DNA of 26,542 nt from a virus (lineage: Duplodnaviria > Caudoviricetes): IMG/VR virus record IMGVR_UViG_3300033067_001613, positions 1 to 26,542 of that record. One strand, written 5' to 3'. Within the stretch, counting starts at the first letter, position 1; each line of letters starts with the position of its first letter. Below the pieces are notes generated by a model. It did not search any database and was not told the DNA's origin. It was given only the letters and a program-made list of their open reading frames with translations. Of the stretch, positions 1-5,107 are shown in pieces. The translations under genes were made by a program, and so were the position numbers.

Positions 1-41
1 ATTATTATGGCAATATTATATGGGTCAGTTAATAAAAACAC

Positions 42-139
42 GGCCAGCGGCTGGGATTCACACCCGCGACATTCCTCTTGCGAGGCTACTCTGGATTCTA
101 TCCTTGCGGATTAGTTGCTTGCGCCTGAGTTACGCTGGA
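42..139 (-). ncRNA. tRNA-like structured RNA without an anticodon (three GCAA tetraloops)
   Basis: Minus strand reads U-CCAGCG-UA-ACUC-AG[GC-GCAA-GC]AA[CUAAUCC-GCAA-GGAUAG]AAUCCA-GAGU-A-G[CCUC-GCAA-GAGG]AAUGUC-GCGGG-UGUGAAU-CCCAGC-CGCUGG-CC, followed by a U-rich run. The acceptor stem (CCAGCG/CGCUGG), U8-A9, D-stem (ACUC/GAGU) and T-arm lie in tRNA order. Confidence 0.75.
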
Positions 140-197
140 TGGCAGCCCATTAAAGGGTAACCATACTACCGTGCATACTTAATTACGAGGAGAAACA

Positions 198-488
198 ATG
201 ACAATCACCAGAAGAGTCACTACATCATTTTTACAGGCAATCCCGCAACATATCAAACATTTTGACGCAGAAGCTTACATAGTCGTGCGCCGAAAACCAG
301 ATAAAGAAGTTCCTGACCATCCTTGGGGCACCGACGTCAGACTAGATCCATGCACATTTAATTGGAACGCCCAGACCATAACCATAACAGTCCCAGAAGA
401 TATAAATTATGGCATACACGATTGGAACGACTTAGACCCAGACTTCTATGAAATGGTTCAAGCATCATTCTTGATGCTTATGGGCTGA
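198..488 (+). CDS. hypothetical protein (96 aa)
   Basis: GAGGAG RBS just upstream of the ATG. Converges on and overlaps the 3' end of the next gene by 31 nt. Confidence 0.7.
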   Translation: MTITRRVTTSFLQAIPQHIKHFDAEAYIVVRRKPDKEVPDHPWGTDVRLDPCTFNWNAQTITITVPEDINYGIHDWNDLDPDFYEMVQASFLMLMG

Positions 489-1285
489 TTCCATCGCGTG
501 CAGATCTTAAAAAACTTATAGCCTTTAGGCCCATATAGCGTCTGTTCGCCAGGTCCAGTAACGCCTGACGACGCATGGTGCAGAAAAGCCGAAGTGCAAA
601 CAATATCGCCACGTTTGGCTAAGTATAATGCGATCAACCTCTCGAACATATGCGGCGTCCACAGCCCAGTATCTCTCAACCGCAACTTCCTAGCCACTTC
701 ATATAGTTTGGGGCCGAGATAGTCCAGTGTCGATCTGGTACAGGCAAACTGATGAGCACAAATCAATGTCGGCTGGACATCCATAGCCCATTCATAGATC
801 TCTGGATCATATTCTTTAATGTAATCCCATACACGAATGCCGACACCAAACTGGCATAGAAACATGGGATCATTTTTGGGAGTCAGACACTCTCTATCAT
901 TCAAAATAAAATCACTACTGGTAACAGCATTAACAGTCAGCCCTATCGACTTATTCGGATCATGCTTTAGAATCGATCCGATCCGCTTCCATGTGAATGC
1001 CGGATTATACTTCATCCTAGTATCGGTATGCAAAAATGCTACATTATCGTTACCAATCAGCTCATCAGCATGTTCCCAAACAGTCAATATCACAGAAGTT
1101 TCAAATAGTATCGAGTTCCAAGACGCATATGTGGGGAAAAAGTCATTAGATTCTGAATAATCAACACCAGGAACCTTGGTTGTCCCACACGAAATATGGA
1201 TCGCCTTGGCATGTTTGGTGTGAAACGGCGTAGAATTTAACAATTTAGCCGATTGTGGATGGTGCAGTACAACTACCTTAAACAT
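458..1285 (-). CDS. putative glycosyltransferase, DUF4422/GT111-like
   Basis: N-S-I-L-F-E-T...W-E-H...D-N-V-A-F-L-H resembles the DUF4422 'N..ELT...WKN..D.VG..HY' pattern, and 'FERLIALYL' resembles its C-terminal ERL motif. Adjacent to another GT. Confidence 0.5.
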   Translation of the reverse strand: MFKVVVLHHPQSAKLLNSTPFHTKHAKAIHISCGTTKVPGVDYSESNDFFPTYASWNSILFETSVILTVWEHADELIGNDNVAFLHTDTRMKYNPAFTWKRIGSILKHDPNKSIGLTVNAVTSSDFILNDRECLTPKNDPMFLCQFGVGIRVWDYIKEYDPEIYEWAMDVQPTLICAHQFACTRSTLDYLGPKLYEVARKLRLRDTGLWTPHMFERLIALYLAKRGDIVCTSAFLHHASSGVTGPGEQTLYGPKGYKFFKICTRWNQPISIKNDA

Positions 1286-3790: not shown

Positions 3791-4542
3791 CAGATTGTAT
3801 GTGGGCAAATAGTGTTATTTCTGGCTCTGCCACAATTACAATTAAAGCATAATATTTGAAAACCAGACGGCCAATTCCTTTTCTGTAACCACCATGCTAA
3901 GTTCTTACCAGTCTTAGAAATTGACCGACGCTGTTCAGCTCCATCGTTATTAATATGATCGAGCGATAAAAAGAAAACATTATCTTCACCACAACACTTA
4001 CAATATGATCCACCATATTGTTCTGTAGCAGTCTGAAACACTTCTCTATCGTATTTCCTGTTATAATATTTTTTACAATTCACTACTGGAGTTTCACCAT
4101 ACAGCCATTTGGATTGTGATTTATGTGGGCATATCCCTCCATTTCTCGCTTTGCCCATATTACAATTCCAACACAAAATTTGAAACCCTTCCGGATAGTC
4201 ATTATCAGTGAGCCACCAGACCAAATTCTTGGACGATTTGTTGTGGGTGGCTCTTTTATACTTTGGATTATTTATCCGCCACTTTACCGCACGCTCGCTG
4301 TGTTTCAGATAACAAGATTCGCATTGTTGTGCTGCAGTTTTATTCTTGCCACATCGAAAACAAATGCCATGTGCGATCCTTTCGGCTTTTAAATTTTGTT
4401 GTCGTTTATTATTTGCCGCTGCGCATTCAGCACATCTAACTCTGGAACTTGGTTCACCGCACTGCACACAAAGACCGCGCGATCGACGTAGCAAATATGT
4501 TCGACCACTCATGAATAGATCCAGATCAGTTGTCAATGCCAT
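3790..4542 (-). CDS. HNH-type endonuclease with Zn-finger repeats (homing-endonuclease-like)
   Basis: C-terminal 'CKCCGE...LSLDHINNDG...FQILCFNCN' HNH module, two N-terminal CxxC-x(8-9)-CxxC units, and a duplicated 'GFQILCxNCN...ICPH' segment. Confidence 0.75.
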   Translation of the reverse strand: MALTTDLDLFMSGRTYLLRRSRGLCVQCGEPSSRVRCAECAAANNKRQQNLKAERIAHGICFRCGKNKTAAQQCESCYLKHSERAVKWRINNPKYKRATHNKSSKNLVWWLTDNDYPEGFQILCWNCNMGKARNGGICPHKSQSKWLYGETPVVNCKKYYNRKYDREVFQTATEQYGGSYCKCCGEDNVFFLSLDHINNDGAEQRRSISKTGKNLAWWLQKRNWPSGFQILCFNCNCGRARNNTICPHTI

Positions 4543-5107
4543 ATGCCTGGATTTCGATCTTCATTGGAAACCCTTCATATTCGGCCCGCAAAACGACCAG
4601 CGGAGCCAATGGCTTACCTTTTAGAGTGACAGTAATAGTATCAATATCGTCTATTCGCTTCGTACCAATACACCACAACAAACCAGTTGGCCGAAGTTCG
4701 GTCTCTAATTTCTTGCAGGCGTCCCACATCTCTTGGTAATTCGTGGGTTTCTTTTGTATCTGTGGGTGTTGTAATGTATATTCGTAGTCGACAGTAATAA
4801 TCGAAGCCCCGAATAATTCTGATGGCGGCAGCAATTTAATGTATACTGTGTCGCCAAGAAGTTTAGTATTCTCTCTATCGATTGTTATTTTAGATGCTTC
4901 GCCATCAATCACTACTAATTCTGATTTACCAAGATCATCAAATAAAATCCGCATATACGCATTGGTATGCCGAATGTGTACTACTACCGTCCCGGCAATA
5001 ACAGATCGCGATAATTGAATGACGGCATGTGTACGGTCTACAACTTCTACGACCTCCCCACGCATTTCTTGGGCAGAATAATATGGGTCCAGTGCTGTAG
5101 TAAGCAT
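4526..5107 (-). CDS. hypothetical protein (193 aa)
   Basis: Packed ORF. Beta-rich N-terminal part ending in 'ITVDYEY'. Confidence 0.7.
   Translation of the reverse strand: MLTTALDPYYSAQEMRGEVVEVVDRTHAVIQLSRSVIAGTVVVHIRHTNAYMRILFDDLGKSELVVIDGEASKITIDRENTKLLGDTVYIKLLPPSELFGASIITVDYEYTLQHPQIQKKPTNYQEMWDACKKLETELRPTGLLWCIGTKRIDDIDTITVTLKGKPLAPLVVLRAEYEGFPMKIEIQAYGIDN

Follow-up and report, generated by a model that had tools for sequence, protein, structure and literature searches.

Among the RNAs closest to the one described here are the stable RNAs of phages T4 (species 1 and species 2, rnaC and rnaD) and T5 (RNA1-RNA3), which are likewise phage-encoded and non-decoding and are annotated without function; several of them combine tRNA-like acceptor and T arms with extra helices, and they lie inside tRNA arrays, several ending in or near CCA. 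A tRNA-like module joined to paired ends also serves outside translation in bacterial Y RNAs (PMC4201824): Yrn1 of Deinococcus radiodurans keeps the tRNA order and has a 6-nt loop; YrlA is permuted (T arm before D arm), has a looped acceptor, bears a GNCGAAN0-1G motif and is encoded within 4 kb of Ro60; and RNase P cleaved no YrlA RNA but the one whose acceptor has 7 bp. The t-elements of plant mitochondria are intergenic tRNA-like structures with no decoding role (PMC1920247). The 19-56 face of the tRNA elbow is gripped by many proteins and RNAs (PMC4810234); among the elbow's readers are RNase P, RNase Z, CCA-adding enzymes, the L1 stalk and modification enzymes (PMC4810234, PMC4919913). The tRNA-like domain of tmRNA, finally, is a tRNA mimic that lacks an anticodon.

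The present study concerns a tRNA-like element on the minus strand of a 26,542-nt stretch of DNA from a tailed-phage record in IMG/VR (hereafter the window; Table 1). With tRNA (RF00005) it shares the helix order, a core comprising U8, A14, G15, A21, C48, U54, and A58, and the D/T elbow, but it has neither an anticodon loop nor a free NCCA, its 6-bp acceptor is closed by a three-way junction, and it carries a 35-nt D-loop, G55, and a bulge in the T-stem. None of the predicted folds of the T4 and T5 RNAs has D-loop hairpins or a cap formed by a 5' hairpin and an outer stem, and the family model R1, built as described below, found no homology in them, its matches in L182 and L183 falling on tRNA genes except for one of 14.7 bits in RNAX. 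Unlike YrlA, the element keeps the tRNA order, and neither the GNCGAAN0-1G motif (0/31 members near the 5' end) nor a neighboring Ro60 gene was found for its family. It sits between genes as t-elements do and may be co-transcribed with them; in contrast to t-elements, the places where RNase P and RNase Z would be expected to cut it are buried in covarying helices and its peripheral modules are conserved. It differs from the tmRNA domain in having a D-stem and in lacking G3-U70, CCA, and a tag frame, and both ARAGORN and Rfam were negative. By analogy, the element would do what tRNA-like modules do in Y RNAs, and among phage RNAs it is reminiscent of the stable tRNA-like ones annotated in T4 and T5. 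The family is apparently undescribed and departs from tRNA, YrlA, and tmRNA in the features compared. No description of a capped family was found in the openly accessible literature, including the available parts of PMC10690425, PMC5852040, and PMC13434031, and six supplementary files of PMC10690425 held no match for two spellings of the motif and four sample identifiers, although a model of this RNA may be among the 10,006 candidates which that paper reports.

Table 1. Features of the tRNA-like element and of the adjoining genes, in window coordinates
Feature	Position	Strand	Evidence or remark
Whole element: tRNA-shaped RNA gene capped by a three-way junction	38..174	-	112.9 bits with family model R1 (training member)
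Outer stem P1, 5' strand	169..174	-	4/5 pairs compensatory
Junction linker	165..168	-	Central AG invariant in 19 aligned members
Hairpin P0, ~10 bp, UUNAWU-type hexaloop	139..164	-	9/10 pairs compensatory; recovered in held-out members too
Acceptor-like stem, 5' strand, 6 bp	133..138	-	All cells paired (100%); 6/6 pairs compensatory
D arm: 4-bp stem and 35-nt loop	88..130	-	Loop holds hairpins 124-117 and 114-98 and an elbow-forming tail, 97-92
D-stem	130-127/91-88	-	Sequence
D-loop hairpin 1: 2 bp, GCAA cap	124-117	-	Sequence
D-loop hairpin 2: 3+3 bp, GCAA cap	114-98	-	Sequence
Anticodon-position hairpin, GCAA tetraloop, without anticodon	74..85	-	Sequence; loop varies among homologues
Short variable segment, equivalents of G46, U47, C48	68..73	-	Sequence; 15:48 pair
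T arm: 5-bp stem with bulged A; loop with G55 and U56	50..67	-	U56 matches A19
Acceptor-like stem, 3' strand	44..49	-	Pairs with 138-133
Outer stem P1, 3' strand	38..43	-	Occupies by pairing the would-be NCCA positions
U-run after P1	34..38	-	Did not score as an intrinsic terminator; many homologues have U/A-rich tails
Divergent conserved gene, 96 aa, no assigned function	198..488	+	Synteny marker only
Conserved gene, 275 aa, no assigned function	458..1285	-	Marker for retrieving relatives

By comparison with its homologues the element measures 137 nt (174-38) and is thus larger than the span 139-42 first assigned to it by a sequence-only reading, which had missed P0 and P1. Every feature named in that reading is present on the minus strand, namely the acceptor, U8-A9, the D-stem, the D-loop of about 35 nt, the hairpin at the anticodon position, the T-arm, and the U-run. 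The reading had also recorded a 1:72 mismatch and the absence of CCA; the letters are as stated, but they follow from the three-way junction that caps the 6-bp acceptor, 'position 1' being the end of the 5' hairpin P0 and 'position 72' the start of P1, so that the acceptor runs on into both instead of forming tRNA's 7 bp with a free NCCA. By eye, the tRNA core letters U8, A9, A14, G15, A21, G46, C48, U54, and A58 are all in the window copy, in which the loop at the anticodon position has 4 nt and not 7 and the segment 26-48 has 20 nt versus 23 in tRNA. Three GCAA-capped hairpins arose in 0/5000 dinucleotide shuffles and at least three GNRA-capped hairpins in 45/5000, and the folding energy taken alone is unremarkable (z = -0.85 for 42-139 and -1.70 for 38-175). 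ARAGORN reported 0 genes, hence no tRNA, in the window, which ends 37 nt past the element, and Rfam gave no match at the gathering score, its single match being at chance level (E = 0.68). Likenesses to RNase P RNA, riboswitches, and ribozymes were considered and found no support in Rfam.

Relatives were retrieved via the 275-aa neighbor gene, yielding 33 viral and 53 metagenome loci, with the 96-aa gene present in 44 of the 86; as a lone query the 96-aa ORF gave no match. At or near the same genomic slot we found 34 distinct homologues, which belong to related uncultured phages of about 350-400 kb and are 39-66% identical to the window copy; the resulting set of 35 sequences has a median folding z of -2.8. 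The RNA is missing from two near-complete relatives and is therefore dispensable in the clade; the first syntenic relative examined (L014/G001) is without the element. Nineteen distinct members were picked for alignment from the parser's matches, with duplicates and a nested pair (L186) excluded. RNAalifold placed six helices in them (P1, a 10-bp P0, the 6-bp acceptor, and the D, anticodon-position, and T stems), with compensatory changes in 31/36 pairs spread over all six. Cells were paired in 94.5% of cases, a value matched by 0/500 shuffles and compared with 33-46% for slid-partner controls; related sequences can outdo shuffles of this kind, but the two pair-count measures are the sturdier. 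When ten held-out members were folded separately, P1, P0, and the D and T stems appeared again, with 21/22 predicted pairs compensatory, but the acceptor and anticodon stems, where the alignment slipped, were not recovered. Model R1, built on the 19, scored held-out members at 122.7, 118.4, 88.3, and 65 bits and further ones, one per record, at 142.2, 137.5, and 66.4 bits, whereas real tRNAs reached at most ~43 bits; nine weaker members (29-54 bits) were admitted by eye and not by score. A pattern for the majority subtype returned 12 matches in IMG/VR, 11 of them family members, and two in GTDB, both by chance, this pattern missing the other subtypes including the window's own. The covariation sought among homologues from related phages is thus present, and with it the structure of the family is well supported by sequence comparison: the proposal of selected structure over pseudogene decay is upheld, as is that of an RNA outside Rfam. 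Pseudogene decay of a tRNA, or a fold arising by chance, would suit the weak folding z of the window copy and the absence of the RNA from some relatives, but is refuted by the covariation, the 34 homologues having kept their pairing at a conserved locus through compensatory change despite their divergence; of all the explanations considered, we give it the least credence.

The core tertiary contacts of tRNA are also kept at the level of sequence (8-14, 15-48, 19-56, and 54-58). U8-A14 and U54-A58 are present in 19/19 aligned members and the 15:48 pair in 19/19 as well, as 18 G-C and one A-U. The elbow pair 19:56 is G-C in 11 members and A-U in one, the window copy, with one unpaired and six gaps, a result equaled in 4/500 shuffles; its compensation depends on that one aligned sequence and on three read by eye, L242, L267, and L210, which are consistent with U-A; the fit is poor in L221 and L207. 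In place of tRNA's U55 with G18, G55 and A18 stand in most members. Such a G55 would let the L-shape fold without T-loop modification, and the G55/A18 combination may free the elbow from modification by TruB and TrmA, given the specificity of these enzymes.

Three builds occur among the 35 sequences: the junction is joined by two D-loop hairpins in 20, among them L188 with a shortened P0, and by a plain D-loop in 12, and three (L202, L235, and L239) have the D-loop hairpins with the closing end formed by a straight extended acceptor stem and no junction. In these last three (L202 at 4506-4638) a strong hairpin follows directly after the straight stem. The three bases after the acceptor, parsed in 33 of the 35, are CCA in 17, CCG in 8, and something else in 8; these bases stand two positions early and covary with their P1 partners. 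Loop sequences vary across members, and the loop at the anticodon position is short or shut by extra pairs in most. The three GCAA or GNRA loops that the sequence-only reading had taken as the defining trait do not carry over: three GCAA caps are confined to the window copy, the other 34 members having none (29) or one (5), and a GNRA loop is found in 4/64 cores with short anticodon arms from other phages. Rfam matched no family to the enlarged D-loop forms including the window copy, and three plain-D-loop relatives pass the RF00005 cut-off at 43.6-44.5 bits. Two members (L207 4577-4696 and L210 3543-3661) have 9-nt T-loops and anticodon-position loops of 8-9 nt. One locus (L186 3855-4090) holds two family-like RNAs, the second apparently inserted in the T-arm region of the first, with a LAGLIDADG gene after them; in L221, a close relative of this locus, a single copy stands intact.

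A gene of about 115 aa lies upstream of the RNA in 18/20 double-hairpin members, 0/12 plain-D-loop members, and 0/3 straight-stem members, at a distance of 0-22 nt in 13 of the 18 cases; the Fisher p of 4e-7 for this link is overstated, the genomes being related. It occurs in 11/25 records, every one of which has the RNA; in G018 and G008 the two are found side by side at a greater distance from the marker gene. The double-hairpin members without it upstream are the window copy and L280, and the window does not contain it at all. We considered decay of the window copy's D-loop insert and dropped the idea, since a 2-bp first hairpin and a short second one are also found in members with the small gene. 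On a tree of the marker gene, gene-bearing and gene-less states are spread over several branches with the backbone unresolved; repeated joint loss of gene and hairpins is possible, and the link may equally be one of shared history among related genomes. The protein had no Pfam or PHROG match at E 0.001; its AlphaFold model (pLDDT 75, pTM 0.48) has a long helix and short strands and no PDB match at E 0.001, with a best VIA Z of 3.9, and its Atlas neighbors are unnamed phage proteins weakly like parts of PD-(D/E)XK nucleases.

A suggested partnership with a phage Ro60 or RtcB found no support in these genomes. Ro60 (TROVE) was found in 0/17 related records, three of them near-complete and one of these, a complete genome, carrying the RNA; nor is it among the 9 window ORFs to 5.1 kb, the window covering 37 nt beyond the other side of the element. 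RtcB occurred in 1/17, the G001 record that lacks the RNA, and the YrlA motif, as noted, in none of 31 members. Neither a CCA-adding enzyme, nor SmpB, nor an Rnl2-type ligase was present in 5 RNA-bearing records each, most of these records being incomplete. The G001 record also holds a different tRNA-shaped RNA (L295, 251662-251726) with a short D-loop, an odd anticodon arm, and an extended acceptor stem.

The window encodes UvsX-like, DnaB-like, UvsY-like, SSB, polymerase, and resolvase proteins, which indicate a large phage, together with glycosyltransferases. The nearest helicase in cultured phages is less than 30% identical, so no cultured relative and no host can be assigned; in the same phages, blastn gave two 31-nt chance matches only, and neither a typical homologue nor the ~115-aa protein had a match. 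A public contig is identical to the window from 33 to 390 without a difference, though it probably comes from the source sample and is not independent. Before position 33 this contig has 121 other letters, with, by eye, an ATG-started frame a few bases past the U-run; window positions 1-32 may represent strain variation or an artefact of the contig's end. The element is intergenic and co-oriented with the downstream gene, and downstream genes are mutually unrelated across members (NAD ligase, acyl carrier protein in L184 and L229, unknowns). A sigma-70 scan of the window gave three weak sites, none just upstream of the element, and no shared promoter motif was seen by eye in 26 upstream regions of members; the stop codon upstream borders directly on the RNA in L197 and L240. 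G018, a complete 408-kb relative with the RNA, has its nearest tRNA ~3 kb upstream of the element. The same genome has a tandem pair of UCA-anticodon tRNA genes (L314 7439-7650) and two tRNA-Trp genes, possibly for opal read-through, and its intergenic DNA (L300-L319) is ~4 times denser in TATNTAC than coding DNA, a possible phage promoter, and contains a repeated motif around TGTTGCG (24 occurrences versus 2.8 expected).

Sequence comparison establishes that the RNA has these helices, the cap, and the core contacts, that it has lost the anticodon and is present in single copy, and that in relatives it is linked to the small gene. On this footing we tentatively favor, at somewhat less than even chances, a discrete, non-decoding, non-chargeable RNA that presents a tRNA elbow as decoy or scaffold. 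Such an RNA would be transcribed together with its neighbors, cut from the longer transcript, and trimmed to P1 at the A/U-rich flanks, and the resulting molecule of ~137 nt would be neither charged nor used in decoding; the D-loop hairpins may dock the ~115-aa protein, and the target would be a factor that binds the elbow or body, not an enzyme that reads the anticodon or CCA, so that an inert tRNA-shaped RNA could occupy a reader of tRNA shape without being used. The chief rival, possible but clearly the less probable of the two, is a cis element akin to a t-element, in which a tRNA-shaped mark punctuates or stabilizes polycistronic phage mRNA and, in the interval from the small gene to its downstream neighbor, would guide RNase P and RNase Z cuts or block exonucleases. 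Its intergenic position, co-orientation with the downstream gene, and start 0-22 nt past the upstream stop in 13 members all suit this rival, as do the lack of a visible promoter of its own, the retention of the elbow that RNase P and RNase Z read (PMC4919913, PMC4810234), and the precedent in plant mitochondria (PMC1920247); an RNA that abuts the upstream stop and has no promoter is equally compatible with it. Both expected cut sites, however, lie inside the covarying helices P0 and P1, and the acceptor has 6 bp where, among YrlA RNAs, RNase P cut only a 7-bp one (PMC4201824). These two points lead us to favor the discrete, P1-trimmed RNA over a mark acting in cis; the conserved junction linker, P0 loop, and D-loop hairpins would also exceed what a cut signal needs, and a purely steric role in stability is unaffected by any of these points. 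A more elaborate version of the discrete RNA, which we regard as unlikely, is a new phage ribonucleoprotein in which the ~115-aa protein would sit on the D-loop double hairpin while the bare elbow of the capped RNA would trap a host reader of tRNA shape, the window copy having lost or moved the protein gene. If so, the trapped reader could be a tRNA-targeting defence enzyme or a maturation factor, and the elbow would be independent of modification in an RNA that cannot be charged, decoded, or matured.

The remaining explanations account for less of the evidence. An adaptor like Deinococcus Yrn1, binding host Ro60 through its paired ends and displaying the tRNA-like module, would fit Yrn1's layout of tRNA order, a non-7-nt anticodon loop, and paired ends (PMC4201824) and a purine-rich motif at the 5' end of 30/31 members, but with GNCGAAN0-1G and TROVE missing from those members and phage records and no bulged C in P1 it is improbable. 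We place just behind it a cis-regulatory sensor, whether riboswitch-like or a protein-sensing leader, for the following gene. UGCAAAU-type T-loops are found in cobalamin and FMN riboswitches and the position just upstream of a co-oriented gene would be apt, yet the genes so placed are unrelated to one another, no conserved expression platform or alternative pairing was seen, and no Rfam riboswitch matched. It is quite improbable that the cap is removed and CCA added to give an anticodon-less RNA that can be charged and serves non-ribosomal transfer of amino-acyl groups: the intact tRNA core, the RF00005 scores of plain-D-loop members, the glycosyltransferases in the window, and the acyl carrier protein genes downstream in L184 and L229 would accord with such a role, but the acceptor sequences vary freely and therefore share no identity element, the CCA can be replaced and is out of register, and a CCA-adding enzyme was found in 0/5 records, though a host enzyme could serve. 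More improbable still is the leading idea of the sequence-only reading, an uncleavable decoy, when made specific to anticodon nucleases such as PrrC, RloC, or AriB. These nucleases read the identity of the anticodon loop, and although that position is short or shut by extra pairs in most members, its loop and stem sequences are widely variable, the conserved cap is left without explanation, and no tRNA array surrounds the element within the window, whose end lies beside it.

Returning to the favored discrete RNA, selection on tRNA shape with both working ends removed would narrow the target to readers of the elbow or body, and the choice between decoy and processing signal becomes directly testable. 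The phage tRNA-like RNAs of T4 and T5 are annotated as of 'unknown function' without a comparative handle, and the capped family supplies one, offering strong covariation, compensated elbow pairs, a candidate protein partner, and three natural builds of one closed tRNA body (junction with D-loop hairpins, junction alone, and straight stem). As the enlarged forms are missed by ARAGORN and Rfam and plain forms are scored as tRNA, such genes are being lost or miscounted in phage annotation.

A broader class of look-alikes was found in other phages. A narrow pattern derived from the window gave 13 matches in IMG/VR and was rejected, all being chance; a generic pattern (tRNA body, 14-nt anticodon arm, GNRA loop) matched 28 IMG/VR loci, and an any-loop control 126 loci of an estimated 400, these comprising 64 distinct cores, 42 of them with at least 4/5 stem pairs. 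A pattern for enlarged D-loops gave 13 loci, mostly real look-alikes with hairpin inserts from unrelated phages. At 56 loci of unrelated phages, RNAs without an anticodon or with an enlarged D-loop were rejected as members, scoring at most 47.3 bits with R1, about the tRNA background, and no recurring neighbor appeared among the genes beside look-alikes (92 + 104 ORFs). Among the ~400 IMG/VR stretches (L043-L168 sampled), the acceptor in many seems by eye to be extended, with a TATAAT-like box just upstream and a U-tail behind. Hairpin-enlarged D-loops (inserts of 20-61 nt) with shortened anticodon arms occur in L021 (3935-4038), L170, L171, L172, and L177-L181, some of them CCA-ended and several in tRNA arrays. 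A CCA-ended, anticodon-less look-alike lies ~120 nt upstream of a peptidyl-tRNA hydrolase (PTH2) gene in L040 (4001-4511), and in L178/L179 a D-loop-enlarged look-alike stands among tRNAs, near genes for RNA ligase, GroES, and metallophosphoesterase.
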